Source: a virus. Taken from it: 44,172 bases of DNA. A program made the translations under genes and the position numbers. Below, in pieces: positions 3,900 through 43,995 of this stretch (within the stretch, counting starts at the first letter, position 1; each line of letters opens with the position of its first letter). The notes under the pieces are model-generated. The model had not been told where the DNA came from and did no database searches. It saw only the letters and a program-made list of their open reading frames with translations. The stretch lies in the UHGV virus genome UHGV-1367777; one strand, 5' to 3'.

Positions 3900-4372
3900 A
3901 ATTATTAATTTGTGATCTGGACGGCGTTGTGAATGCCGTATCCGACGTGCGCGCCCACCTGGTGCCGATCTACGTCGATAAATCGCATTACTGGTCTGAG
4001 TGGCACAAGGCGCACGAATACGAACCAATCAACCCGGCGGTGCGAAGCATGTTGCAGGCTTACGTCTCCCTGGGCTTCGAGATCTGCTATATGTCATCCC
4101 GGCAGAATACGTGTTCTGAATCCACGTCGCGCCAGTTAGTGGGTAACGGGTTCCCTAATGGGTCATTAGCATTGCGCCGCCCGCAGGATAACACCCCTCC
4201 CGTCGAAATGAAGGCGGACACCCTGGGCGCGCTGCTGTGCTATTCGAAGGTCGAGCAGTTGGTAATTTTCGACGACGACAAAAACAACCTGGACGCGATG
4301 GTGGCGGAGGCCGCGAAATTCGGAGTCCCCTGCATCCCGATCCACATTTCCAAATTTATTGGTTGCAATTAA
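3896..4372 (+). CDS. HAD-superfamily phosphatase-like protein
   Basis: HAD motif I LICDLDGV, a motif II Ser/Thr (YMSSR), motif III K (KADT) and motif IV FDDDKNN are all present. Confidence 0.6.
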   Translation: MKLLICDLDGVVNAVSDVRAHLVPIYVDKSHYWSEWHKAHEYEPINPAVRSMLQAYVSLGFEICYMSSRQNTCSESTSRQLVGNGFPNGSLALRRPQDNTPPVEMKADTLGALLCYSKVEQLVIFDDDKNNLDAMVAEAAKFGVPCIPIHISKFIGCN

Positions 4373-4392
4373 AAGTTGGTTGCATTATCTTA
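4357..4392 (+). promoter_or_regulatory. promoter TTGCAA-N17-TATCTT formed by two ATTGGTTGC copies 17 bp apart
   Basis: Motif copies at about 4359 and 4376. Followed by the 5'UTR hairpin CGGGGCGGattggCCGCCCCG (4400-4420). Confidence 0.5.
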
Positions 4393-5029: not shown

Positions 5030-5660
<631 letters not shown>

Positions 5661-5706
5661 ACTGCTCTTCCGGTTTATATGCCGGAGTTCGTCCACCAGA
5701 AGATTT

Positions 5707-6900: not shown

Positions 6901-7146
6901 ATGAAAAGTTTAAAAGTCGCGATCGTGGGTGTTGCCGTTGGTCTTGCCCTGGCGGGTTGTACTGTGCGTGATGGCCTGCCGGGTATCGCTAAACCTGTTG
7001 TAGACCCAGCGCCTATCGAATGGGACGGCGAAGGCCATCTGGTGCGTGATACCGAAAAGCTACCGATGACGGGGGATTGGTGCCAGCATTATGACCACAA
7101 AGACCGTCGCTGGGGTAGTCCGTCAAACTGCGTAGCAGACTATTAA
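6901..7146 (+). CDS. cor: Cor-like superinfection-exclusion outer-membrane lipoprotein (moron)
   Basis: MKSLKVAIVGVAVGLALAGC is a lipoprotein signal peptide with a lipobox. The ~81 aa gene sits on the opposite strand between the tail fiber and J genes, flanked by palindromic terminators. The identification as Cor rests on position, size and lipoprotein signal, by analogy to the cor genes of phi80, T1 and N15. Confidence 0.5.
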   Translation: MKSLKVAIVGVAVGLALAGCTVRDGLPGIAKPVVDPAPIEWDGEGHLVRDTEKLPMTGDWCQHYDHKDRRWGSPSNCVADY

Positions 7147-7147
7147 T

Positions 7148-7175
7148 AAAGGGGCCAATTGGCCCCTTTCCTTTT
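7148..7175. terminator. bidirectional terminator with perfect palindrome GGGGCCAATTGGCCCC
   Basis: A-run then a 16-bp palindrome then a T-run. It serves cor (+) and J (-). Confidence 0.65.
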
Positions 7176-10100
7176 ATGCGAATGACCCTGTACCGCGAGC
7201 GATTGTAACCGTTGGTGCTAAAATCTGCTTATTCACCGTGTTCGCCGATATTGCCGTAAAAGTAACGGGAACCTGCCGTGATGTCACATTTCGCACCGCA
7301 TGGCGGAATACGAACCAGTTTCCCTGCGTACCGCTCCGCAGAGCTACGTTAGAAAACGTTTTAGTATTACCGCCAATATTAATAGTGACATCCATAATGG
7401 TGTCGCTGTTTGCGGAAGCATAGAAAACAGCTTCGGCCAAAACTGCTTTATTCAAATTCCCTGTGGACGAATCGGTATAGGTTACGGTTCGCGCCGCGTT
7501 CGTGCCCCCCGAGGCCGTCGCATCCGCCCCGATACCAACGTTGGCCACGTCTCCCACGAAACTGGTAGCCTCAACCGTCCCGGTAAAGCTGCCGGATGTG
7601 GCGTTGATCGATCCGGTGAATGACCCGGTGTTCGCGTACACCGCGCCGCGCACGACCACGTTATTAAACTCGGCGTTACCGGACTTCGGAAGGTTCCACC
7701 CGGTAGACCCGGATACGAAGTTGTTAGAGCGCAACGTGTCGCTGATCTGCGCGAAGCTGATCGAGGCGTTGTTGATGCGTGCCGTGTCAATGTATACGGC
7801 ACCGCCAGACACGATGAACGCGGATACCAGCGTCCCGTTGCTCGGGTGCATGATATAGAACTGGTCCGCTTTAAACGCGATGCGGGAGATAACGCCCGAC
7901 CCGTTGGCGATGGTGGAAAGCACCATGCCCGCGTCGTAATACGTGCCGTTGTACGTCACGCCCGCCTTAAGCGAGTAAATTGCCGACCCGGACGTTGCCG
8001 TGAACTGGGACGTCATTTTCTGCTCAATGGCTGCGGATTGCTGCCCAAACTCGGCAGCTACCTGCACTTTGTAATCCGCCAGCGCCTGGGTTTGGGTCGC
8101 GATAGCCTGCTGGTTTGTCGCGATAGCCGCTTCGTTCTGCGCTATAGCGTTGCCGTTCTTATCAACCTGGCCTTCAACCGTGCCGAATCGTGCAGCAACA
8201 CTGGTCTGGTATTCCGCGAACGCCTGATCCTGGGTTGCGTTGGCTGTTTGCAGAGTGTAAATCGCGGATTGCTGTTCGTCATATTGTGTGGCCACTAAGG
8301 TTTCAAGCTGGGCCAGCGCCTGGGTCTGGTCCGCAATCAGGTTGTAGTTGACCTGAATGTCCGCATAGATATTGCCGAACTCAGCGCGCTCGCTAAGAAT
8401 ACTCTGATGGTCCCCCAACATGGATTCGTAAATCCCTTCCGGCGTCGTGTTGATTTTTTCCAGCAACACCTTGCCGTCTTCCGCCGATAGGAAACTTTCA
8501 TCCAACCCCTTCATGTAGTCATTGACGTTATCGCTGACCTGGCCCTGCACGACGTTAGACCAGCCTGACAGATTCCCGGACTTATCGGCAACACGGGCGC
8601 GGGCGTTCAGGTAGATCCCGAACTCAAGAGACGTTTGCGCGTAGTCATCCGCCGGGTAGGGGGCGTTAGTAACGAATGCCCAGGTAGATTGCCCTGGCAC
8701 CTGAACCTGCAATTCGGTGTAAGAAATATCCGAAGCGGAGTTATTCAGGTCCCACTGCCACTTAATCTGGTGAAGACCAGATTCTGCCGCCAGCATGACC
8801 GGGGCGTTGAGCGCACCAATACGGCCTGACACGGAAGTAATGGCCGATGACACCCAAGGCGACGACGTCTCCCCCATACCGATGGCGCGTACGCGGGCCT
8901 GGTAGTTACCTTCAAACACGTTTTCAACGCGAGCGCCGTTTGATGCGGTGCGCGGTAGGTTTACCCAATCGTTACCCCAGGATACGCTCGTGTCCTGCAA
9001 GCTGGTTCGCCGCCACTGGATTTCGTAAACCATCGCGTTAGGTACTGGAGGGAACACGATATCAACGTTGGTGATCAGCACACCCTGGCTACTAACCTGT
9101 GACGGGGTCAGGGTGACACTGGCCGGGCCTTTCAGTGTGCTGTCCGGGACCTGGGTGTAAATCCCGGTATCCAGGCGCGATCCCCTATCAACGGCATCAT
9201 ATTTGGATTCGTTGTACTCCACGCCGCGTACGGTGAACGTGTTGTTCGCGTCGTCATACTGAAGATCCGTAATGCGGTACTGCTGAACCTGGATGTCGTC
9301 GCCGTCAACCACGAACGGCTGGTTCGGGATCGGGTCTGCGCTCAGTGCCGAGTCGAGCGTAACCGACGTGCCGGACACGGAAACGATGTCGCGTGTTTCC
9401 ATTTGCCCGCCTGCCGTGCGCACGATGAATCGATCACCAGGGCGGAAGGTGATTTCCTGGTCCGTAATAACCACGTTACGGTTGCCGGGTGGGTCCATGA
9501 GTCGGCCGCCACGAATCTCGGCACCGCCGGAAATGTTCACGTCCGCGATCGCCACCACCGACCCAGGGATATAGAACAGCCCTTCCAGGCCAACCTGGAA
9601 TGACACCTGTGAATCGAGTTGGTTCGTGATTAACGCCCAATGCCCACGACGCTGCGCTTCACTTTGGCGGGTACACCCAATAGCCGAGAGGGAAAGCTGA
9701 TTAATCTTGTAGCGGCGCACCAGTTCAGCCCGCATGCCGTTTGCGATCGCGTCGGCGTAGTGGTTGGCCGGGTCTCCGTACGCCACCGAGAACGTGGAGT
9801 ATCGAGTTTTCTGGCTACCCGTGGCGTAGTCGAATCGGCCTTCGATAACGTTGGCGTTATTCAGTACGTGCGCCGCTGATGTCACTGGCTGGTCACTAAT
9901 GAGGTTCAGCATCTGATTACCCCACCACGACATTCCCGCGAAGATCGAAGCCAGGTCCTTAAGTACGGTCCAGGCGTCGGTCTGTGCCTGAATGTACATG
10001 TCATTCTTGAAGCGGATTTCCTGGCCGCCGTTGCCGTCCGGGACTAACTGGTCGCAACGCTGCGCAATCTGGTAAATCGCGTAACGGTTCAGCATTTCAG

Positions 10101-13564: not shown

Positions 13565-16210
13565 TCACCGTTTGTACAGGATGCCACCTGGCCGCGTTTG
13601 CTTCGCGATTTCGGCTTTCACCGCTTCGGTGATCTGCTTGCCGAACGCCGCCGCTGCCTGGGCGTTCCCGGTGCCGGATACCGATGTCGATGTCTGCCCG
13701 GTTCCCATGTTAACGTTCGTCTCGACGAAGATTCCCCCGGCAGCACCCGACGCCTGGACACCCAGCTTGCCGTCAGGTCCGCGCGTCAGTGGCATGATCG
13801 CTTCCGGTCCCGCCTCGCCCATCAACCCGGCACCGTTCGCGAACGCCTTCACGCCGTAGTTGAAGAACGTCGGCTGTGTGACAATCTGACCCGAGAATGC
13901 CGACAGATTACCGCCGGAATAAGCCCCGCCTTTCGCGTTCGCCGTCAGGCTGGCGAAGATATCCCCGAAGAGGGACCCGCCCGAACCTTTACCAAAGATG
14001 GACGCCAGCGACTTAAGAGCCGAGGACGTCGCCAGGCGGACCAGTTCGGCCAGCATGGTATTCACCAGGTCCTTAATACCGAATTTCCCCGTCGTGAAGA
14101 ATTCATCCAGGGAGTCCGTCATTGCGCTGAAGGTGAACTTCGTCAGACCTTCCATCTGCGTATAGGCGTTCCCGGTCTCGTCCACCATGTCCGCCAGTCC
14201 TCGACTGAAGCCTTCGAAGAGGGTGGCATTGTCGCCGCGCATCGCCGCTTGTGTTTCCTTCAGCTTCGCTACGGCCCGGTCCTGATCCTGTTGGCTGGCC
14301 CCGGCTCGCTGTAATCGGTCGATCAGTTCAAGCTGTTCGCGAAGGTTCGACGCCTCGCGGGTGGAAAGGGCATACCCCTCCGTGATCCCTTTTATTTCGG
14401 CGTTCTGGTTCTTTAGATACAAATCAACTTGCTGGTGTGCCTTCAACGTCTTTTCTACGGCGTCTTGACGTTTTGCTTCCTGTAGGATCTGCTCACGTAC
14501 CAGTTTGGTGCGCTCCATTTCGGCCATTTGCTGCCGTTCGGCAACTGTGAGCGTTCGCGTTTTGGCGGCCTCTTCCAGCGTCGCATATTCAGCATTCAGC
14601 TTGTTAAGTTCAGCCTGGGCTTTCGCCGCTCGTGTGCCGTCCAGGGCGTTGGCGGCTTGCTGTGCGCCTGCCGCTTTCAGCGCGGCTAACTCGGCCTGGG
14701 CGGACTCCAGCATCTTCAGGCCCGCGTCCACTTTCACCGCTGCGGCTTTCGCCACCTTCGGATCGGCGTATCGTTTGTTTGCCTCGGCCAGATACTTGTC
14801 ATATTCGGTTTGCGTGATAACACCCTGTTTAAGCAGGTTGTTAAGGCGCGTTTGTTCTTTGGCGCGCTTCTCCGCGTTGGTGGAGTATTGCGTTTCCAGT
14901 TCGTTACGTTCTTTCGCCTTGCGGTTCGCCTCCTCCTGGGCTTTCGCCTGCGCCTCAGTGTCCCGTGCTTCCTGGCGTTTTGCGGCCGAGGCTTTTGTGA
15001 GTACGCCCAGGGAACGATTAAGTTCGTCGATTTCCTGGTTCAGGTTGTTAATGCGGGACTGCTGCGCCTGCGTCGCCACCCCGTTCTGCTCCCGGATGGC
15101 TTTAGTCTCGGCGTTATACGCGGTGATCCGGTCCTGGAGGCGCTTACGAATATCCATTTCCTGCTCTGTGGTCGACTCCGCCCGGCCGATGTCCAGGATC
15201 GCGTTCCACATCGTTTTAGCCGCGCTGGTGACGGCCATCATTGCGCGCTCGACTGAGCCCATGTTGCCTTTGATTTCGGCGGACATGTCATCGAACGACT
15301 TAGCGGCAATTGAGTTGGCCTGGGCTACTGCTTCAGCCTCTTTCCCCTGGTTCTGAAGCTGCCGGACGTGCTCGACCTGCGCCTGGGTTACTACGTGGTA
15401 TTTATCCGCCAGGGCCTGGAGACCGCCGACCGGATCATTCGACAGTTTGCCGACCTGGTCGGCTACGTCTTCCAAAGGCTGGCCCGACGCTTTGGCGAAG
15501 TCCTGCACGGTTCTGGCGAGCCGTTCAAAGTCGGCACCCGCCTTCACGCCTGCATTAGCCAGCGCCTGGAGGCTGTTAAGAGTCCCACGGAATGATTTTC
15601 CGGCGGAGTCCGCATTCTCGGCCATGCGTAACATCTGGTCCGCCGTTAGCCCGGAAATGTTGCCCGTGAGAGTCAGCGTCTTATTAAGCGCCGCCATCTG
15701 CGACTCAGTCCGGCCTACCACGACCACCCCGGCGGTCAGCGCTGCCGTTACTGCGGTCAACGCAAGCCCTACAGGGCCAAGGAAGCCTACCAGCGCACGT
15801 AATGTATTACCCAGGCCGCCGAACGCGCCTGTTACCTGCGGAAGCTGCTGGAGAAGGACGCGGTATACGGGCATACCCATGTCGAGTGATACGACAACGT
15901 CCTGAAGCTGAAGCGCGGCGTTTCGGGTAGCGAACGCTACGTTCTTCTGTGTGGTGCCTAACTGCTGGGCGATCTTCTCCGTCTTAGTCATGTTGGTGGC
16001 GACAACGCCCGCCGCCCGACCTTCTTTTTCGAGGCCCTCCGCCGCTTCGGATGCCGTGGATTTAGTTTTGCGGTTCGCCTCGTTGAATTTGTTCGTCGCC
16101 GTCTCAGCTTGCCCGGACTTCTGAACAAGTTCGTCCATCGCCTTGTTCGCCACCGGAATCGAACTGGCGTCAACTTTGAGCGTTAAGCCCGCCGCCTGAT
16201 CTGCTGCCAT
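13565..16210 (-). CDS. H: tail tape measure protein
   Basis: 881 aa. Ala/Gln-rich coiled-coil repeats. Lies downstream of the G/GT chaperones and upstream of M, L, K. Confidence 0.85.
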   Translation of the reverse strand: MAADQAAGLTLKVDASSIPVANKAMDELVQKSGQAETATNKFNEANRKTKSTASEAAEGLEKEGRAAGVVATNMTKTEKIAQQLGTTQKNVAFATRNAALQLQDVVVSLDMGMPVYRVLLQQLPQVTGAFGGLGNTLRALVGFLGPVGLALTAVTAALTAGVVVVGRTESQMAALNKTLTLTGNISGLTADQMLRMAENADSAGKSFRGTLNSLQALANAGVKAGADFERLARTVQDFAKASGQPLEDVADQVGKLSNDPVGGLQALADKYHVVTQAQVEHVRQLQNQGKEAEAVAQANSIAAKSFDDMSAEIKGNMGSVERAMMAVTSAAKTMWNAILDIGRAESTTEQEMDIRKRLQDRITAYNAETKAIREQNGVATQAQQSRINNLNQEIDELNRSLGVLTKASAAKRQEARDTEAQAKAQEEANRKAKERNELETQYSTNAEKRAKEQTRLNNLLKQGVITQTEYDKYLAEANKRYADPKVAKAAAVKVDAGLKMLESAQAELAALKAAGAQQAANALDGTRAAKAQAELNKLNAEYATLEEAAKTRTLTVAERQQMAEMERTKLVREQILQEAKRQDAVEKTLKAHQQVDLYLKNQNAEIKGITEGYALSTREASNLREQLELIDRLQRAGASQQDQDRAVAKLKETQAAMRGDNATLFEGFSRGLADMVDETGNAYTQMEGLTKFTFSAMTDSLDEFFTTGKFGIKDLVNTMLAELVRLATSSALKSLASIFGKGSGGSLFGDIFASLTANAKGGAYSGGNLSAFSGQIVTQPTFFNYGVKAFANGAGLMGEAGPEAIMPLTRGPDGKLGVQASGAAGGIFVETNVNMGTGQTSTSVSGTGNAQAAAAFGKQITEAVKAEIAKQTRPGGILYKR

Positions 16211-16255: not shown

Positions 16256-16510
16256 ATGAATATGCGAATTTTCATTCAGTCTGAGGACGGAGGGGGCCAC
16301 ACCCCCCGTCCAGTCTGAAAGACTAGGCTTTGTCCCGGTCGTCCCGCCTGCGATTTTCCCTTATAAATCAGTTGGGGGACGCCGGGACGTCCCGTTTGTC
16401 CCGCACCGAAACGGGACAAATTTCTGTCCCGCTTACTTATCCACGGCAACTGCATAACTATTCAGGGGACGGATCGGGACGTCCCGCCATGTCCCGGTCG
16501 TCCCGCCCCC
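16256..16510. repeat. iteron-rich element copy A
   Basis: Contains the GC hairpin GACGGAGGGGGCC-aca-CCCCCCGTCC and the palindrome AGTCTGAAAGACT. There are about 6 (T)GTCCCGC units, a 12-bp palindrome CGGGACGTCCCG twice, and the DnaA-box-like TTATCCACG. About 85 percent identical to copy B at 34569-34775. Confidence 0.85.
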
Positions 16511-16544
16511 ACATTATGGCAACCAATTACGAAATATTTTAAAT

Positions 16545-16582
16545 AATTGGTTGCAGAATGCATGCAACCAAGTTATAGTCTT
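16545..16582 (+). promoter_or_regulatory. promoter-like TTGCAG-N16-TTATAG with ATTGGTTGC/GCAACCAA motifs; AT-rich stretch just upstream
   Basis: Motif copies at about 16519 (reverse), 16547 (forward) and 16564 (reverse). It sits upstream of the secreted moron gene. Confidence 0.4.
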
Positions 16583-16660: not shown

Positions 16661-17041
16661 ATGAAAATCAAACATATCGCCGTAAGCTTCCTCCTGGCCT
16701 CTGTGGTGGCGCTGCCGACCGTCGCTGTGTATAAGCACCTCATGCACGAAGAGACCGCCCAGGAAATGTGCAGCCGCACTGTCGACATTATCGCCAACGC
16801 GAATGGCGTCGTCGCCACTGAAACGAAGGACGAAATGCGCAACGCCTGTCTGTCAGTAGCCGACACGCATTCCGTGCTGACCAGCTTCACCCCGGCCGAT
16901 ATGCAGCGTCAGGAGAGCGACATTCAGTATGGTATGGCTAAGTCGTGGTCCGGGGCTTACGGGAAGGAATACACCGCGATCATGCAAGCGAGAATCGCCG
17001 GGTATGAGTGGGCTTACTACAAAGTGAAAAAGGACCGCTAG
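16661..17041 (+). CDS. secreted/periplasmic moron protein (126 aa, signal peptide)
   Basis: N-terminal MKIKHIAVSFLLASVVALPTVAV is a signal peptide. The gene is inserted on the opposite strand between GT and the tape measure gene. It has its own promoter region and a bidirectional terminator. Confidence 0.6.
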   Translation: MKIKHIAVSFLLASVVALPTVAVYKHLMHEETAQEMCSRTVDIIANANGVVATETKDEMRNACLSVADTHSVLTSFTPADMQRQESDIQYGMAKSWSGAYGKEYTAIMQARIAGYEWAYYKVKKDR

Positions 17042-17063
17042 GCGGTCCTTTGGGCGATTATCT
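17037..17063. terminator. bidirectional terminator AAAAAGGACCGC-tag-GCGGTCCTTT
   Basis: Perfect 9-bp stem with a flanking A-run and T-run. Confidence 0.6.
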
Positions 17064-17478
17064 CTTCTAAGGCGATGCCTTCCATGGTGCGGATGTCCTT
17101 GAAGGCCCTACGCTCGTCCTGGATGCCGTTTACCTTAAACAACCACGGCAATATCCCATAATCCAGCCCATACGCCCCGTTAAACCCGGTGCGCCACTGA
17201 GTACCCATCTGAATAAACACTTCAAACACGGGCCAGTTATCAGGCCAGATGCCGACAGGCGGCGCTAACTCTTCCGGCGAGGCCCCGAACAGGGCCATCG
17301 CTAAATTCTCGTCCGGTGGCGGCGCGCCATAATACCGTCGCACCGCCTCAATCAGTTTTTTTCCCGCAAGCCCATCAGTTCGAGATAGTAGGTCGAGTGG
17401 ATTGCACCGAACGCGCGCGGGTAGTTCACCAGCATGCGGCGAATGTTTCCGGCCGTGAACTCCTCTTTGAAGCCCCAC
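17038..17478 (-). CDS. T: tail assembly chaperone T segment (expressed as a G-T fusion by -1 frameshift)
   Basis: The ORF overlaps the 3' end of G in the -1 frame. The slippery sequence G GGA AAA AAC sits at the end of G. Confidence 0.7.
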   Translation of the reverse strand: MGLQRGVHGRKHSPHAGELPARVRCNPLDLLSRTDGLAGKKLIEAVRRYYGAPPPDENLAMALFGASPEELAPPVGIWPDNWPVFEVFIQMGTQWRTGFNGAYGLDYGILPWLFKVNGIQDERRAFKDIRTMEGIALEEIIAQRTA

Positions 17479-17714: not shown

Positions 17715-17732
17715 TATCGTTTCTCCAATAAA

Positions 17733-17758
17733 AAAGGGGCCAATCGGCCCCCATAATA
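17733..17758 (-). terminator. terminator AAAAAGGGGCCaatcGGCCCCC after the major tail gene (T-run on the minus strand)
   Basis: Third copy of the GGGGCC-AAT-GGCCCC hairpin family. Confidence 0.55.
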
Positions 17759-17781
17759 ACGCGCAACCAAATAAACGCAAA

Positions 17782-22863: not shown

Positions 22864-22912
22864 TAGCTTGCAACGCGTGATTGGTTGCATTAGTATTGGT
22901 TGCATCGAAACA
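22864..22912 (+). promoter_or_regulatory. promoter TTGCAA-N17-TAGTAT with two ATTGGTTGC copies
   Basis: Motif copies at about 22881 and 22896. Drives the + moron island. Confidence 0.5.
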
Positions 22913-23246: not shown

Positions 23247-23989
23247 GCATGAAACTGACAAACGAAATTCGTAATAAAATCCTGGCTAACATCGTTGCCG
23301 ATCACGCGGTCTCGGCCGAAGCGCGTACTGTTATCGACCGCTCACACGCCCTGGCTATGCAAGTTCTTAGCCTGGCGTACCCGAAAGGCGTAACGAACAA
23401 CGCCGAAATGGACGAGTGGTATCAAGCCGAGCGTAAGCGCACCGACACAGAGAGTATGTTAAGCACCAACTATTATCTGAACTACGTAACGGTGTACCGC
23501 GACCGAGACCGCAAAACGATCGGCATTCGCTCGGACAAGTTCGGCGTTAACGCAGGAGGACACGCCCGCGAACTGTTCCTAAGCGGAGATTACCACGATC
23601 AGGAAGGGCGTACGTTCGATGACTTTAGCCCGTGGATGGGTCCTATCGTGCCGGGCTACGCGTTGTCTAAGATGAAAGGCCTTCTCCAGTACGACGAGTC
23701 AGGCGCGTTGCAACGATTTTTCCTTCCGTACTCACGCGTGACTTTGAAGGGTCCAGCCCTCCTCGACGAGTTGGACGCGCTCGACCAAATGCGCCGTGAA
23801 GTGTGGGAGAAATACATCACGCTTCGGTCCGTAGTGTGGGCCACGCTGTCGAAATACAACTCAGACAGTAAACTGATCGAAGCCTGGCCGGAAGTGAAGC
23901 CGTTCATCCCGGCCGAGCAAAAGAAAACGGGCACGGCGGTAGCCCTCGATACCGCAACCTTAAACGCAATTTGTGGACTTCCTAAATGA
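23243..23989 (+). CDS. hypothetical protein (248 aa)
   Basis: ATGA-coupled to the upstream gene. No recognisable motif. Its 3' ~90 bp is tandemly duplicated downstream. Confidence 0.5.
   Translation: MSMKLTNEIRNKILANIVADHAVSAEARTVIDRSHALAMQVLSLAYPKGVTNNAEMDEWYQAERKRTDTESMLSTNYYLNYVTVYRDRDRKTIGIRSDKFGVNAGGHARELFLSGDYHDQEGRTFDDFSPWMGPIVPGYALSKMKGLLQYDESGALQRFFLPYSRVTLKGPALLDELDALDQMRREVWEKYITLRSVVWATLSKYNSDSKLIEAWPEVKPFIPAEQKKTGTAVALDTATLNAICGLPK
23885..23973. repeat. direct repeat copy 1 (~89 bp)
   Basis: Near-identical to 24022-24111: CTGGCCGGA(a/t)GTGAAGCCGTTCATCCCGGCCGAGCAAAAGAAAACGGGCACGGCGGT. Confidence 0.85.
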
Positions 23990-24288
23990 AAAAATTAGCA
24001 CTGGCGGTATTAGTCCTGGCCCTGGCCGGATGTGAAGCCGTTCATCCCGGCCGAGCAAAAGAAAACGGGCACGGCGGTGGCCCTAGATACCGCCACTTTA
24101 AACGCAATTTGGGGGTTACTAAAATGGTCGCGACAACAAAACACACGGCATCATTCGCCGAATGGTTCGAAGAGTACCGCAAATACTCACTATCACAGGG
24201 TATCGCGGCAAACTTCCCGGAAGAGTGGGAAGAAGATTATGAGGCGGGTAAAACGCCTGAACAAGCGTTTAAAGACGCGTGGGATTAA
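23986..24288 (+). CDS. lipoprotein (signal peptide MKKLALAVLVLALAGC) fused via the duplicated segment to a 54-aa C-terminal module
   Basis: Textbook lipobox. After the signal, the ORF reads through repeat copy 2 in an alternative frame into MVATTKHTASF..., which has its own possible start near 24125. Confidence 0.45.
   Translation: MKKLALAVLVLALAGCEAVHPGRAKENGHGGGPRYRHFKRNLGVTKMVATTKHTASFAEWFEEYRKYSLSQGIAANFPEEWEEDYEAGKTPEQAFKDAWD
24022..24111. repeat. direct repeat copy 2 (~90 bp)
   Basis: See copy 1. Confidence 0.85.
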
Positions 24289-33894: not shown

Positions 33895-34415
33895 TTCAAC
33901 ATCTCCCGCACCCAGGCCAGGCGCTTCTTGTTGGTGTGCTGTGTGCGATTCTTAAGGTCGCGGGCATACGCAACCTTCCCAAACGGATACATCTTGTCAC
34001 GGCCCGGCAGTACAGTTTTGAATAAAGCCATCACGCCCCACCGCGCCGTACCTAGGATATTGTGAGCGATGCACCACTGTGACAGGTTGGAACACAGCCC
34101 GACTGAAGGGTCCAGGATGGTGTGACGCCATGCGCCCGTCTCAGCCCAGACTAGCCATTCAGCCAGGAACTGCTTAAGCACACTCATGCCGCCTGCCAGT
34201 TCAGCGTCGATCCGGTTCTTAGTGCCTTCGGCGGTGATGGTGCGGATAACCGCACGGCCACGGTTGGTGATGCGCTTTGTCTCCACGCTGTAATCGCGGG
34301 TGCCGTCTTCGTAGATGATCCGGCAGTACGTTTTTCCGTTGATGGTGCAAGTTTTGATGTCAGCCATTTTGATGCCCTCAGTTCGTTGTCGATGAAAAGA
34401 TAATAGCGCATGCAA
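33891..34415 (-). CDS. hypothetical two-domain protein. Its C-terminal half is a paralog of 22929-23246
   Basis: See the paralog alignment. The probable start is MADIKTC (about 34367). It is the first gene of the - early operon, after a pair of ATTGGTTGC motifs. Confidence 0.55.
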   Translation of the reverse strand: MHALLSFHRQRTEGIKMADIKTCTINGKTYCRIIYEDGTRDYSVETKRITNRGRAVIRTITAEGTKNRIDAELAGGMSVLKQFLAEWLVWAETGAWRHTILDPSVGLCSNLSQWCIAHNILGTARWGVMALFKTVLPGRDKMYPFGKVAYARDLKNRTQHTNKKRLAWVREMLK

Positions 34416-34436
34416 CCAACTAATGCAACCAATTAT
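34410..34436 (-). promoter_or_regulatory. paired ATTGGTTGC motifs (minus-strand orientation) with an adjacent AT-rich stretch
   Basis: GCAACCAA at about 34412 and 34425 on the + strand. Confidence 0.45.
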
Positions 34437-34568
34437 TTAAACTATTTTCGTGTGCGTGTGCGATCGCGATCTTAACGTTAGGACTAATCCGAGTTGCCGC
34501 AATCCAATCTGCGCACCTCCTATCTGTTGCCGACATCAATTGCAGTATGCTGCCGACAGTGTGCAAAA

Positions 34569-34775
34569 ATGAATATGCGAATTTCTATTCAGTCTGAAGA
34601 CGAGGGGGGCCGATACCCCCCGTCTAGTCTGAAAGACTGGGATTTGTCCCGCTCCGTCCCGCCCCTGAGAGCCGCGCCACGCCTGAGGGGGACGCCGGGA
34701 CGTCCCGTTTGTCCCGCTTCAATTTTGTCCCGCTTTTTGTCCCGCTTATTTATGCACGGCAACTGCATAACTATT
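34569..34775. repeat. iteron-rich element copy B
   Basis: Same architecture as copy A. It has the hairpin GACGAGGGGGGCC-gata-CCCCCCGTCT, the palindrome AGTCTGAAAGACT, three tandem TTGTCCCGC units, CGGGACGTCCCG, and the DnaA-box-like TTATGCACG. It lies just 3' of the primase-helicase gene. Confidence 0.85.
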
Positions 34776-34814
34776 CTGCAATTGGTTGCCACTGTAATTG
34801 GTTGCCACATCATT

Positions 34815-37073
34815 TTAGTCCGCCAAATCGTCGTCGGTGGCAACCAATTCACGCACAATTCCGTCCGGGATCACCAGGTTCGATGTGCCCATTTGCATGC
34901 CTGTGTCGGGGTCCCGGTAGCCTTTGAACACGCCCCTTTCGATTAGCGCGTTGATGGCCGTTGTGTTCGTTCCGCCCTTCTCATAGCCCGCTTGCTTCAG
35001 TATGGCCGACTTGCTGAAGCCGTGGTGCCCTGGGTTGGCCTCCATCAGCGCTTCGAGCGCCGCGACGAATTCCGCTTCCTTCTTATTGCGCGGGCCTTCC
35101 TTCGCTTCGGTGGTCTGCTTCTTCACGATCTGGGTGGTGCCGAACGGTTCCAGCGCGACCGGGACGAGATACAGCGTTTCGTCGCGAGGTGATACGGACA
35201 CTGGCTTGACTGTGTGGCCCGCTGTGATGTCTCCCCAATCCGGGCCGGGGTTGGTGGCCTGGTGCGCCTCGAATGCGGCCGACTTCTTCTGATCGAAACC
35301 AACCTTGCACTTCAGCAGAATGAAGCCGCGTGGGGACTGTCGGGACCCGTTACGCATCTTCTCGTGATACAGGTTGATCTGGCCCTTCTTCTGCTCGTCC
35401 GGTTGCTCAATGAAGAACGCCGTATCAACGGCACCGTGCAGGGCTGACGAGCCACGCGGGGACCTGCTGCCGTTCGGTGATTTGGCCGGGTGGTGGATGA
35501 CGCCCGCTGACCCGCCCGTGGCCTCGCTGATTTGCTTCAGGGCGCTGACTACCTCGCCCATGTCGCTGGCGTTGTTCTCGTCGAAAGGCTTCTTATCTGC
35601 GGCGCGCAACGCCACGGTCTGGTTCAGCGAGTCGAACGTGATAATGCCGACAGGCTCGTCACGGGCCAGTTTGCGGATCAGACGGATGACTTCACGCACG
35701 CCGTGCTTACTGGTGATATCCCACCCGGTGGCCTGCATGTCGATGATGTGCAGCTTGTCCAGGTCGTCCTGGTACTTCTGCCGCAGGGCTTCCTTACGCT
35801 GCTCGGTGGACTCGCCGCCTTCCGCATCGAAATAGAAGTTGTGCGCCTGTACTACCTTCGCGCCACCGAACGGGATTCCGGCCGACACTGCCGCCATCTT
35901 ACCGAGCATATAGAACGATTTACCGATATTCGATTCACCCGCAGCGTACCAGGTAGACCGGAAGTTCAGCAGGCCCTCAACGATCGGGTCGTACTTCGTG
36001 AACAGGGATTCCGGTTCGTTCTCCAGGTCGAAGTCGGTACACACGCCGAAGTCCTCACCATCACCCACGGCGTCGGTGACGTGCTCATACTGCGCGGCAA
36101 CCTCTTCGTCGTCCAGGCCTGGCAACATTTCCGCGATCTGCTTACGGCTAAGCTGGTGAGGCTGAACGTTGATGTGGTCCGGCATACCCAGCAGGCGAAG
36201 CGCCAGGTGCTGGTGACGGTTTAGTTCTGAACAGCACCCGTTACCGGAGTGCATGCAGACGAAGCGCATTTCCTTGCCGTCCAGCATGATCGCGGTTGAG
36301 CCTTCGCCGGAGTGCAGATGTTCGTTTGGGCACGGCACTTCGTACCCACGGCCGGAGGACAGCGGTTCGAAACCCTGTTCGAAGCACCAATCAGAAATGG
36401 CCTGGTTGTCGCCGTTCAGGTCTTCGATCAGTTCCTTCTCTTCTTCCTGGTCAATCCCCAGCTTGTCTGCCAGGCGAAGCAGGCGACGAACACGGACCAG
36501 GTTGCCGTCGTGACACTCGACAACGGACTGAGCATGGGGCAGGTATACCAGGCGGTTGGTATCCACGGTGCAGTCATCGAAACCCACGTCTTCCAGGCCG
36601 AGGGAGTGCAGTAGGGCGTACTGTGCGCGGCCGAAGTCTGCCGCTTCCACTGGCTTGTCAGTCAGCACCAGGACGCGGATACAGCGGAGTCCACCTTTCA
36701 GTTCGTGGCGGTCCCCGGTGGTCGTGTGGAATACGTGGGCCAGGCCGGACTCCCGGAAGGCGCGTTTCACCCGGCGCACGGTGCGGGCGTCAGCACGGTC
36801 CAGGTCATAGAACAGGATCGAGCGGTTGCCGATGTCGGCTTTACGGCGCGTACCGTTAAGGGAGGTCGCCACGATACCGTCGGCGCGGGACTTCTTGCGG
36901 TTGTACCGGGCTTTATCTTCGGTGCCAGAGATCGACACGCTGGAAATATCGCGCGCGTCCTGCATGAATTCGAAGAACTCGGCAACGGTCATCGCCTGGT
37001 TATTTACCCGGGCGGATTCGCCTTTCTTCGCAGGCGGAGTAATGCCGAAGTGAATTAATTTGCTCATTGTCAC
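34815..37073 (-). CDS. DNA primase-helicase (zinc-binding primase N-domain + RecA/AAA_25-like helicase C-domain)
   Basis: 752 aa. Cys/His cluster CPNEHLH...CMHSGNGCC. Walker A GESNIGKS and Walker B IITFDSL. C-terminal ATDDDLAD tail. Confidence 0.75.
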   Translation of the reverse strand: MTMSKLIHFGITPPAKKGESARVNNQAMTVAEFFEFMQDARDISSVSISGTEDKARYNRKKSRADGIVATSLNGTRRKADIGNRSILFYDLDRADARTVRRVKRAFRESGLAHVFHTTTGDRHELKGGLRCIRVLVLTDKPVEAADFGRAQYALLHSLGLEDVGFDDCTVDTNRLVYLPHAQSVVECHDGNLVRVRRLLRLADKLGIDQEEEKELIEDLNGDNQAISDWCFEQGFEPLSSGRGYEVPCPNEHLHSGEGSTAIMLDGKEMRFVCMHSGNGCCSELNRHQHLALRLLGMPDHINVQPHQLSRKQIAEMLPGLDDEEVAAQYEHVTDAVGDGEDFGVCTDFDLENEPESLFTKYDPIVEGLLNFRSTWYAAGESNIGKSFYMLGKMAAVSAGIPFGGAKVVQAHNFYFDAEGGESTEQRKEALRQKYQDDLDKLHIIDMQATGWDITSKHGVREVIRLIRKLARDEPVGIITFDSLNQTVALRAADKKPFDENNASDMGEVVSALKQISEATGGSAGVIHHPAKSPNGSRSPRGSSALHGAVDTAFFIEQPDEQKKGQINLYHEKMRNGSRQSPRGFILLKCKVGFDQKKSAAFEAHQATNPGPDWGDITAGHTVKPVSVSPRDETLYLVPVALEPFGTTQIVKKQTTEAKEGPRNKKEAEFVAALEALMEANPGHHGFSKSAILKQAGYEKGGTNTTAINALIERGVFKGYRDPDTGMQMGTSNLVIPDGIVRELVATDDDLAD

Positions 37074-37077
37074 GGCC

Positions 37078-37383
37078 TTATTTAGCGTTGCGGACCCAGG
37101 AACGTACGGTGCTTACGTTGATGCCTGTAATCTCGGCAATCATCGCCCAGGACTTTCCTTCTTCGCGCAATTTGATAACCTGCGCTTTGTATAATTCCAT
37201 TTCGGAGTTATGCTTCTCTAACTTGCTCGCTGCCGTACCGTTCAGCAGTTCCAGTTTGGCGTTCAGCCCTTCGAAAGCGTCAACGATTAAATCGCGAGCC
37301 TGGACCGCCTCCATCCCGTCAGCCTTTTCAACGATGTCCAGTAATGCCTTCAGTTTCACAGTATTCATTTTAAGTAATCTCAT
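37078..37383 (-). CDS. HTH DNA-binding protein
   Basis: C-terminal WAMIAEITGINVSTVRSWV is a helix-turn-helix. The ORF track starts it at TTG 37428. ATG candidates are at 37383 and 37367. Confidence 0.5.
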   Translation of the reverse strand: MRLLKMNTVKLKALLDIVEKADGMEAVQARDLIVDAFEGLNAKLELLNGTAASKLEKHNSEMELYKAQVIKLREEGKSWAMIAEITGINVSTVRSWVRNAK

Positions 37384-37407
37384 TGGTTGCAGGACAAGGA
37401 ATATACA

Positions 37408-37440
37408 TCTTGCGCGCGTATAGTGCAAGCCCTATTATCC
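37408..37440 (+). promoter_or_regulatory. sigma70-like promoter TTGCGC-N17-TATTAT
   Basis: Good spacing and -10. It points at the downstream intrinsic terminator with no ORF in between. Confidence 0.4.
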
Positions 37441-37532: not shown

Positions 37533-37565
37533 TGTTGACGCAACCAACGCAACCAATTAACCTTC
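37533..37565 (+). promoter_or_regulatory. promoter TTGACG-N17-TAACCT with two GCAACCAA copies in the spacer
   Basis: Sits upstream of the first + early gene, 37608. Confidence 0.5.
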
Positions 37566-38459: not shown

Positions 38460-39916
38460 TGCAGTCTGGATCTAACACCGAACACTCGATTCTCAGCCCG
38501 TCGGGATCTAAAAAGTGGCTGAACTGCGCCGCGTCGCTTGTGGTTGAGCAGGACTATCCGAACGAGTCCGGCCAGGCGGCGATTAACGGCACCGCAATGC
38601 ACACCGTGTCTGAGGTGGTGCTGAACCGGATTATCAACGAGGGTGCCGACCTGGACGCCCGAACCTATAAAGGGGCTTACGTTGAGGACGAGGGGAAAGG
38701 CAAGATTCGCGCGCACGTTAAGCCGCCGAAGGGCGGGGTACTGGTCAACGATGACATGGTCAAACAGTGTAACTCCTACATTGACCACTGGCGACCACTG
38801 CTCAACGTCTGTAAGTTCGTCCAGCTTGAAATGCGAGTCGACCTTACCCGCATCCTGCACAAAGGCGCGACGGTAACGGTCACGGACCCGCGCACTGGCG
38901 AGAAGTCGAAGGCGGAAGTCCAGACGTTCGGGACTGCCGATATGGTCATGCTGGTCCCGCAGTCGGATGGAACGTTCCTGCTCATCGTGGGCGACCTGAA
39001 GACCGGGCGGCACAAAGTGCATGCGAAGGAAAACAAACAGCTTATGCTGTACGCCCTGGGCGTCCTGCGCAAACTGCGCCGCCTGTACGATATCAGCATG
39101 GTTCGCCTGGTCATCTTCCAACCATACTGCGGCGGTGCCGATGAGTGGGACATCACGCCGGACGGCCTGGACATCTTCGCCAAGTTCGCCAGTAAGCGCG
39201 CCCTGGCCGCGATCGACGCGCTGGAGAAGGGTAAGAAAGGTCTGAAGCCTGCGGACTTCAAGCCGAGCGCCGACGCCTGCGAGTGGTGCCGATTCGCTAA
39301 CGACTGCGGGGCCAGGGCGAAAGCCGCCATTGCGACGCTGCGACCGTCAACGGCAACCGATGACGACCTGGCGGACACGGCGGATAATACCGAAGCGTCA
39401 CCGGAAGAGATCGCGAACCACGAGCGCAATATGGAACGCAAGGCCCGCCGTGAAGCACGCAAGGCCCGCCGTGAAGCACGTAAAGCGCGCCGGGAAAAGC
39501 GCAAGCCTGACCAGTACGCTATGACGCCGGAAGAACTGAAAGTGGCGTATGACGACCTGGACATGATGCGCCAGCACATCAAGCGCATTGAGGATGCCGT
39601 GTTTAAGGCTGTGTTGCAGGGCGAAGGTAAAACCCTGGGTCTTAAGATGGTAGCTGGCAAGGAAGGGAACCGGGCGTGGGGTGACAAAGACGCCGTCCTG
39701 GACATGCTGACTAAATCACGGGTCAAAAAAGACCTGTTTATCAAAGAATCGCTCTTCAGCCCTGCTGATGCCGAGAAGGTTCTGAAAGACGAGAAGCCAG
39801 CAGTATGGGCGAAGTTGCAAGCGCAGATCAAACGCGCCCCAGCTAAGCCTACCCTGGCACCTATCGATGACCCACGCCCGGAATGGTCCGAGGCGACTGA
39901 CGAGGATCTGGAATGA
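38459..39916 (+). CDS. PD-(D/E)XK nuclease, Cas4/RecB-like with C-terminal Cys cluster (DUF2800-like) plus ~190-aa charged C-terminal extension
   Basis: GTADMVMLV...IVGDLKTGRHKV and QLMLYALG motifs. CEWCRFANDCG is a 3-Cys cluster. Internal ATDDDLAD and 3x RKARREA repeats. Confidence 0.7.
   Translation: MQSGSNTEHSILSPSGSKKWLNCAASLVVEQDYPNESGQAAINGTAMHTVSEVVLNRIINEGADLDARTYKGAYVEDEGKGKIRAHVKPPKGGVLVNDDMVKQCNSYIDHWRPLLNVCKFVQLEMRVDLTRILHKGATVTVTDPRTGEKSKAEVQTFGTADMVMLVPQSDGTFLLIVGDLKTGRHKVHAKENKQLMLYALGVLRKLRRLYDISMVRLVIFQPYCGGADEWDITPDGLDIFAKFASKRALAAIDALEKGKKGLKPADFKPSADACEWCRFANDCGARAKAAIATLRPSTATDDDLADTADNTEASPEEIANHERNMERKARREARKARREARKARREKRKPDQYAMTPEELKVAYDDLDMMRQHIKRIEDAVFKAVLQGEGKTLGLKMVAGKEGNRAWGDKDAVLDMLTKSRVKKDLFIKESLFSPADAEKVLKDEKPAVWAKLQAQIKRAPAKPTLAPIDDPRPEWSEATDEDLE
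39437..39499 (+). repeat. 21-bp tandem repeat (2 perfect + 1 degenerate) encoding the RKARREA heptad
   Basis: CGCAAGGCCCGCCGTGAAGCA x2 seen directly. Confidence 0.8.
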
Positions 39917-43678: not shown

Positions 43679-43995
43679 CCCCTGAAGGGAAAATCCAGGC
43701 CCACCTTCGCAAGCTGGTTAAGGCAGAGGGCGGGCTTACGAGAAAGGTACGTTGGGAGGGGCGCAATGGCGCGCCCGACCTGCTGGTCCTGCTCAACGGC
43801 ACCACATGGGTAGAGGTGAAAGCCCCTGGCGAGTTTCCGAAGCCCCACCAGATAGAAGAGCACCGCCGTATGCGCGAGCGCGGCGCGGACGTCCGGGTAA
43901 TTGACACAATCGAAGGTTGCGAATTATTGGTTGCGGAATTGGTCGCACGGCGGTATGATTCCCCGGTTAAAGGTCGAAGGAGACGTAAATGTTAG
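43675..43995 (+). CDS. VRR-NUC domain nuclease
   Basis: PDLLVLL...WVEVKAP...QIEEHRRM...VRVID matches the VRR-NUC PD-(D/E)XK signature. Classic partner of the SNF2 helicase. Confidence 0.65.
   Translation: MTPEGKIQAHLRKLVKAEGGLTRKVRWEGRNGAPDLLVLLNGTTWVEVKAPGEFPKPHQIEEHRRMRERGADVRVIDTIEGCELLVAELVARRYDSPVKGRRRRKC
43925..43960 (+). promoter_or_regulatory. promoter TTGCGG-N17-TATGAT with an ATTGGTTGC motif, embedded in the 3' end of the VRR-NUC gene
   Basis: Good -10. Confidence 0.4.

Follow-up and report, generated by a model that had tools for sequence, protein, structure and literature searches.

A repeated box-and-hairpin element beside the primase-helicase gene of a Dhillonvirus relative: a candidate replication origin

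Is the repeat-rich stretch that follows the primase-helicase gene of the virus genome UHGV-1367777 an origin of replication and, if so, which of its parts would do the work? Within the 44,172 nucleotides of this genome that we analysed (hereafter the window), an initial annotation had picked out an iteron element at the 3' end of the gene, had paired it with a second copy elsewhere, and had read the two as a candidate bipartite origin of a new arrangement, equipped with DnaA boxes and AT-rich flanks and comparable to ori and crr of satellite phage P4.

The element beside the gene, which we call B, occupies positions 34569-34776 and aligns with positions 16256-16463 as a direct repeat of about 210 bp, the alignment showing 79% identity overall, blocks of 83-100% identity and several 1-nt indels; one block of 31 nt (34687-34717, GGGGGACGCCGGGACGTCCCGTTTGTCCCGC) is 100% identical in A and B. 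Within B lies an array of seven boxes (34643-34748, by hexamer count), in which the box reads GCGGGACAAA on the minus strand, with TTTGTCCCGC present four times on the plus strand and the palindrome CGGGACGTCCCG once; element, block and array were assigned no strand. Element A (16256-16463) is made up of a tail (16256-16276), a hairpin (16277-16325), iterons (16329-16434) and a head (16437-16463), beyond which stands an extra block of four boxes with a second CGGGACGTCCCG (16466-16505), exclusive to this copy. The hexamers GTCCCG and CGGGAC occur 47 times in the 44-kb window: seven lie in about 100 bp at B, 11 in about 170 bp at A, and the remaining 29 are scattered over the 44 kb, A and B being the only two clusters. 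The boxes are irregularly spaced (9-16 bp), and B with seven and A with 11 both hold the at least three clustered short sites by which an iteron origin is recognized. The direct repeat and the pair of clusters bear out the reading of B as an iteron repeat with a second copy, and its position next to the 752-aa primase-helicase gene is likewise confirmed, only 38 nt separating it from the stop codon (34815-34817).

Along the minus strand, the parts follow one another in the same order in both copies: a head palindrome, three to four GCGGGACAAA boxes, a spacer, two boxes, a hairpin and an AT-rich tail. The first group consists of three direct GCGGGACAAA boxes and a fourth within the palindrome CGGGACGTCCCG, and a spacer of about 25-35 nt separates it from two further direct boxes. 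In copy A the minus strand carries TGATTTATAAGG between the box groups (16359-16370), as do L044-L047, L085, L087 and L037 (L numbers are our labels for compared sequences), in whose place copy B of the window and the copies of the E. coli Dhillonviruses have a GC-rich spacer. A sigma54-type promoter in the spacer, judged by eye, was discarded, the spacer sequence not being conserved in copy A. Open reading frames also run across the element (34589-34858 on the minus strand, 34494-34946 on the plus strand, and JL1_15 in phage JL1), and in many records the element is mis-annotated as a protein gene, of which JL1_15 is an example; since the copies and their homologues differ by 1-nt indels that break these frames, we do not consider them credible as coding sequence.

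The hairpin is a long imperfect palindrome of 50 nt (34590-34639) with an outer stem CAGTCT/AGACTG and an inner stem of G6/C6. As minus-strand RNA it folds with -27 kcal/mol (z = -4.25), and hairpins of unrelated sequence stand at the equivalent place in nine lineages, with fold z-scores from -1.8 to -5.0. Between close copies the pairing is kept by double changes from A-T to G-C and from G-C to T-A; in the hairpin alignment the 3' arm aligns in shifting registers. Adjoining the hairpin is the tail (34560-34589), which is 73% AT against 43.5% overall and includes ATGAATATGCGAATTT, common to copy A. It is short (30 bp) and holds no 13-mer-type repeats, and AT-richer patches follow the hairpin in relatives too.

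At the opposite end, the head (34745-34779, 60% AT) contains the palindrome TTATGCA (34750) - N7 - TGCATAA (34764), which overlaps GAATAGTTAT on the minus strand. Its sequence GTGAATAGTTATGCAG is nearly constant and is conserved out to the phages phiEap-2 and TS6. Among Dhillonviruses (L002, L026, L029 and others) the N7 spacer (34757-34763) reads either GTTTTAT or its reverse complement ATAAAAC, as though the loop had been turned round between its two arms. The head also seems to resemble ArgR boxes (TGAAT-N4-ATTCA), the central bases often not being A/T; in TS6 (L038, 5320-5365) two ArgR-like 18-mers lie 3 bp apart, as they do in ArgR operators.

It is in this head that the near-consensus DnaA boxes ascribed to both copies are found. 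Sites with one mismatch do exist, TTATGCACG at 34750-34758 and TTATCCACG at 16437-16445, and in A-type copies of the E. coli Dhillonviruses TTATGCACG is often kept. However, matches to TTATNCACA with at most one mismatch number 30 in the window against 21 +/- 5 expected, the conserved part of the site is TTATGCA alone, that is, one arm of the head palindrome, and the DnaA-like extension is absent in 16 of the 17 B-type copies of E. coli Dhillonviruses, most of which read TTATGCAAT or TTATGCAGT. Conserved TTATNCACA boxes, the mark of a DnaA-dependent origin, are thus replaced here by one-mismatch sites that most B-type relatives lack, and we have set that class of origin aside.

The AT-rich flanks proposed as origin parts fare no better. 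The stretch at 34430-34450 is 120 bp off the element and lies within a module of promoter type, built on TTGGTTGC (TTGCAT-17 nt-TATTAT), that precedes the next gene; it and the stretch at 16528-16548 are inverted copies of each other and part of a motif, ATTGGTTGC, that occurs 23 times in the window against 2.1 expected, for the most part in pairs between genes. The motif copies at 34425 and 16547 each provide a -35 hexamer (TTGCAx) from which a good -10 lies 17 nt downstream. Beside copy A, three GCAACCAA/TTGGTTGC boxes (16519-16571), among which the AT-rich stretch cited for that copy is contained, include a promoter-like site, TTGCAG-17 nt-TATAGT, facing the moron gene at 16661-17041. Two ATTGGTTGCC boxes of the same promoter-type motif lie on the plus strand between the head of B and the stop codon (34781-34806), and a lineage-specific box of promoter type precedes the head in all relatives. 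Further examples of ATTGGTTGC sites are 2678-2702, 4359-4383, 22881-22903, 34412-34432, 34782-34805, 37540-37556 and 43927-43934, besides 16519-16571, and relatives have lineage-specific versions of the motif (GTTGGCTG, GCGGCCAAC); a small sigma70-region-4-like HTH protein (37078-37428, minus strand) is a candidate for its reader. DnaA-box and AT-flank cues are unsuitable for calling origins in these phages.

The window belongs to a phage related to, but divergent from, the genus Dhillonvirus, which includes HK578, SO-1 and JL1. Its coding DNA matches that of Dhillonviruses weakly, the primase-helicase being 68% identical in the comparison with SO-1, and A and B are 78-84% identical to elements in 159 Dhillonvirus records, usually at two places per record (a few list one, three or more). 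Element B is 78.6% identical to region B of SO-1 over 88% of its length. Both places are annotated as repeat_region, "region A" and "region B", in the GenBank entry of SO-1 (NC_013600), with a note beginning 'possible', and by sequence similarity as well as by both positions the window copies belong to this family. The arrangement is therefore not new, as had been supposed, its copies having been annotated in SO-1 already and SPP1 being a known 44-kb siphovirus with two origin copies; a literature search on Dhillonvirus regions A and B found no paper studying or testing their function.

The layout right after the stop codon is kept in Dhillonviruses and in relatives with a primase-helicase of just 38-74% identity, those at 38-50% among them: head, three direct plus inverted boxes, spacer, two boxes, long hairpin and AT-richer tail. 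Within one genome A and B have the box type and the 31-nt identical block in common. Among relatives the positions of the boxes are equivalent and their sequences differ, with at least ten different ones: GTGTGGCAA in L043 and L044, GTGTGCCAA in L045, GGTGCCA in L046 and L047, CGGACAA in phiEap-2, L085, L087, L090 and L092, CCGACA in L086, L089 and L096, GGGGGAGA in TS6, L083 and L095, AGGGATAA in L093, GGGGATGA in L097, ACTCGCAA in L041, L073-78 and L094, and TCGCAA in L042. Such lineage-specific box sequences are as expected for the sites of a phage-encoded reader.

Pattern searches extended the comparison. An exact search for the GTGTGGCA array pattern returned unrelated phages, that for GTGTGCC returned none, and a gapped ACTCGCAA pattern was too unspecific; a search for related loci from the single protein also came back empty. 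Unrelated IMG/VR phage contigs (L050, 379-577, and others) hold dense GTGGCA clusters, 11 in 200 bp; none of the proteins encoded there is related to the primase-helicase, tape-measure protein, tail chaperone or moron protein of the window. In six IMG/VR relatives with the same winged-helix-bearing architecture (L079-L082, L084 and L088) no element was found within 1.2 kb of the gene, and canonical terminators follow the gene instead.

Copy number varies among the carriers. Two box clusters are present in HK578 and in the window; the genomes of phiEap-2 and TS6 each have a single one, placed as B is. From this we take B to be ancestral and A to be later; to judge from the sequences compared, the duplication that gave rise to A is confined to the Dhillonvirus lineage. 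P4 crr consists of two 120-bp repeats and must be present in cis. Two separated sites are likewise present in the window and in Dhillonviruses, whereas phiEap-2 and TS6 make do with one, and the origin is thus probably not obligatorily bipartite in the sense of ori and crr.

Flanked by the gene for a DUF1799 tail chaperone (17038-17478) and that for the tape-measure protein (13565-16210), copy A is placed as 'region A' is in SO-1, and nearly all genes flanking the copies are on the minus strand of the window. Beside copy A, on the plus strand, is a moron gene (16661-17041) for a 126-aa protein that has a signal peptide and matches no family; the gene separates those for the chaperone and the tape measure and is absent from HK578 and SO-1. 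In HK578 copy A comes after a rho-independent terminator, and between A and the tape-measure gene stands TGATACAAT, which is conserved and extended -10-like. The cumulative GC skew has its minimum at 35-38 kb, which is weak evidence for an origin at B because the minimum coincides with the switch in gene orientation, which the skew follows, so that it does not tell replication from transcription. Other repeats in the window include a 106-nt direct repeat, 90% identical (23883-23988 and 24021-24126, with a start-to-start spacing of 138 nt), and a perfect 21-nt tandem duplication (39436-39477), in frame and hence of seven residues, inside a DUF2800/PD-(D/E)XK exonuclease ORF. The palindrome AAAGGGGCCAATTGGCCCCTTT, with A/T runs on both sides, occurs three times (5626-5661, 7141-7176 and 17726-17761), and these copies are probably bidirectional terminators where genes converge.

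Which protein would read the boxes? The 'primase-helicase' (34815-37073, minus strand) consists of an N-terminal alpha/beta domain, a zinc ribbon, a RepA-type helicase, a disordered linker and a C-terminal winged helix. Its helicase domain matches AAA_25 and is closest to RepA of RSF1010, which places it in the RepA family of hexameric helicases. The N-terminal 340 residues (36045-37067, minus strand) have a confident fold and no sequence match in Pfam or the PDB; by profile and structure searches the domain remained unclassified, with no match to Toprim or another primase family, and the label 'primase' stems from a PHROG name and weak matches. At the C-terminus, the region coding for the winged helix and an acidic tail (34818-35084, minus strand) is our candidate for the iteron reader. 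The winged-helix model has a core pLDDT of about 90 and the topology H-b-H-H-wing, and its fold neighbours, at weak E-values, are MarR, histone H5 and the winged helix of ORC2.

Comparing relatives, we observed that the box type switches together with the C-terminal winged helix, the rest of the protein being 94-99% identical. In all seven pairs with helicase domains at least 96% identical and different box types, the winged helices are 40-61% identical, whereas in all six pairs with equally similar helicase domains and the same box type they are 93-99% identical; between phiEap-2 and L086, for instance, the N-terminal domain is 99%, the helicase 98% and the winged helix 52% identical. In the close group, seven columns set the GCGGGACAAA type apart, and four of them are found among the final 82 residues, in helix 2, at the beginning of helix 3 and in the wing. 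The window itself has the box type of the E. coli Dhillonviruses, but most of its protein body is as in phages with other boxes. Given that the box type switches along with the winged helix while the protein body stays near identical, we hypothesize that the winged helix of the primase-helicase is the likely reader of the boxes. We stress that, because the DNA coding for the winged helix abuts the boxes, a single recombination event could move both without a functional link, and their joint transfer could reflect linkage alone. Two other readers were considered and rejected: the small upstream-encoded HTH protein (37078-37428), because the window and L043 differ in their boxes but not in the recognition helix of this protein, and the N-terminal domain, because that of L040 is very different although L040 has the same boxes.

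From these observations, we lean, if only slightly, towards the view that element B is a candidate replication origin, or at least a cis-acting array on which the initiator docks. What survives of the initial reading as an iteron-type origin is what looks like an iteron-type cis site, tied indirectly to the primase-helicase by a conserved layout and by the co-switching of box and winged helix; the DnaA box and the cited AT flank drop out. In the mechanism that we infer, the primase-helicase would dock on the GCGGGACAAA boxes by its C-terminal winged helix, held on a flexible linker, and several bound copies would gather the RepA-type helicase domains by oligomerization. The 50-bp palindrome and the AT-rich tail might then melt or extrude, and the hairpin, as single-stranded DNA, would receive the helicase ring and be the site of the first priming event. 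Since A carries the same boxes, the same protein should bind it; element A might be a second origin or, as has been proposed for oriR of SPP1, a bound roadblock that would aid a switch in the mode of replication.

A wider version of this proposal, which we put forward as speculation and rate as rather doubtful, is that a single protein unites the iteron reader, the RepA-type helicase and the primase, functions found in RSF1010, and fires an origin of iterons plus a primed hairpin. Cassettes of reader and box would have been swapped into at least ten orthogonal specificities among enterobacterial siphoviruses, and relatives infecting the same cell could thereby become incompatible in replication or exclude one another; in Dhillonviruses, copy A would serve as a programmed barrier to forks, or as another origin, and so determine when concatemer synthesis takes over.

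An element placed between genes and carrying a hairpin might instead serve transcription, and we regard this as unlikely, if less so than the other alternatives. The boxes would then be operator or activator sites for an early-to-late switch or for autoregulation of the operon with the primase-helicase gene, the hairpin a terminator or attenuator of an unusual sort, and A a device that restarts or gates transcription of the tail genes. Both copies do lie between transcription units and on the coding strand, promoter-type TTGGTTGC boxes flank both, and a 'terminator' is annotated under the match in one phage record; the place of copy A in HK578, after a terminator and upstream of the tape-measure gene with TGATACAAT between, would also suit a transcription signal. 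However, the hairpin has no U-tract, which the true terminators of relatives do have, a scan for canonical terminators and promoters showed nothing convincing within the element, the phage promoters appear to use TTGGTTGC, the sigma70-like promoter being separate and downstream of B, and phiEap-2 and TS6 do without a second copy. The box type, moreover, tracks the winged helix of the replication protein and not the small HTH regulator. That same swapping of boxes with a DNA-binding domain speaks against a structured RNA on the minus-strand transcript, a signal for antitermination or processing such as HK022 put or lambda nut used twice in a long operon, which we judge improbable. The hairpin lies on the transcribed strand and could act as RNA, it is kept by compensating changes and folds well as RNA, and both copies have the orientation of the flanking genes. 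Two copies per genome also recall putL and putR. Yet the palindrome folds equally well on both strands, about 100 bp of the element are short direct and inverted DNA boxes with no consistent RNA structure, and Rfam 15 gave no matches at gathering thresholds in the whole window.

If both copies were needed, as ori and crr are in P4, with host DnaA acting at TTATNCACG and melting at the cited AT flank, the one-mismatch DnaA boxes at equivalent places in A and B, and the TTATGCACG often kept in A-type copies of E. coli Dhillonviruses, would be accounted for; we hold this to be very improbable, given sites that occur at chance frequency, that are missing from nearly all B-type copies of E. coli Dhillonviruses and that form the arm of a palindrome with a flippable spacer, a flank taken up by a promoter-type motif 120 bp away, two single-copy relatives, and a helicase of RepA type, not SF3 as in P4 alpha. 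Least probable of all, in our estimate, is a site for recombination or packaging or a mobile element, whether a terminase site of pac type, a resolution site or a miniature mobile repeat inserted at two places. Its appeal lies in two direct repeats 18.3 kb apart, in the palindrome spacer that flips between phages, and in a putative resemblance of the head to paired ARG boxes as in ColE1 cer. Against it, the element keeps to fixed positions throughout 159 genomes, neither target duplications nor extra copies are seen, and the specificity tracks the replication protein. As for a pac site, we rejected it because Dhillonviruses are reported to package by headful (PMC9022532) and the terminase genes lie 5-6 kb away.

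If the origin reading of B holds, it pins down both an origin and an origin-binding domain for the Dhillonviruses, a group without a described origin. They are a large group of siphoviruses of E. coli, Shigella and Salmonella which, together with Guernseyvirinae-like relatives, are common in phage collections and in therapy work. The matched pairs of winged helix and box would, if true pairs, offer a test bed for the evolution of initiator specificity and could supply orthogonal replication parts.

Set beside known systems, what is new here is a member of an already annotated element family and of a known kind of phage origin. SO-1 regions A and B share the two positions, boxes, head and hairpin with the window, of which the extra box block in A and the neighbouring moron gene are features of its own. 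In SPP1, a 44-kb lytic siphovirus of Bacillus, there are two origin copies of direct repeats plus an AT-rich region (PMC6316719): oriL at the replication genes, inside gene 38, and oriR, which interrupts the virion-assembly genes beside morons (PMC6316719). Its protein gp38 binds both origins, and oriR is proposed to stall forks and so trigger the switch from theta to sigma, that is, concatemer, replication (PMC6316719). This two-copy layout, in which the replication genes have one copy and the late region the other, is present in the window, where we know it from sequence layout. In SPP1, however, binding, loading and unwinding are divided among separate proteins (gp38, a loader and a DnaB-type helicase), and no long hairpin has been described at its origins.

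The mechanism that we propose for B would merge the logic of three further systems: P4 alpha, the oriV of RSF1010 and the stem-loop origin of pRN1. P4 alpha unites a primase, a helicase and a C-terminal winged helix in a single chain, the winged helix reading iterons found at two places apart from each other (PMC4234260); it differs in having a Toprim primase and an SF3 helicase, whereas the window helicase is of RepA/SF4 type, and a P4-type initiator (Toprim plus SF3) was accordingly rejected, the helicase matching AAA_25 and RSF1010 RepA and no Toprim match being found. RSF1010 oriV combines iterons with primed stem-loops (PMC4234260). That IncQ plasmid uses three separate proteins, RepC, RepA and RepB', where the window has one fused protein, and two ssi sites, where the phage has one long palindrome, a hairpin being present in all lineages. 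Closest in placement is ORF904 of pRN1, with primase, helicase and C-terminal winged helix, whose stem-loop origin of about 100 nt lies immediately downstream of its own gene and has been shown experimentally (PMC4234260); several phages have been noted to carry stem-loops like it after the gene for their replication protein, and of these BIP-1 was analysed in detail (PMC4234260). The pRN1 system has an archaeo-eukaryotic prim-pol domain, an SF3 helicase and no iterons, and to its design the phage element adds an iteron array.
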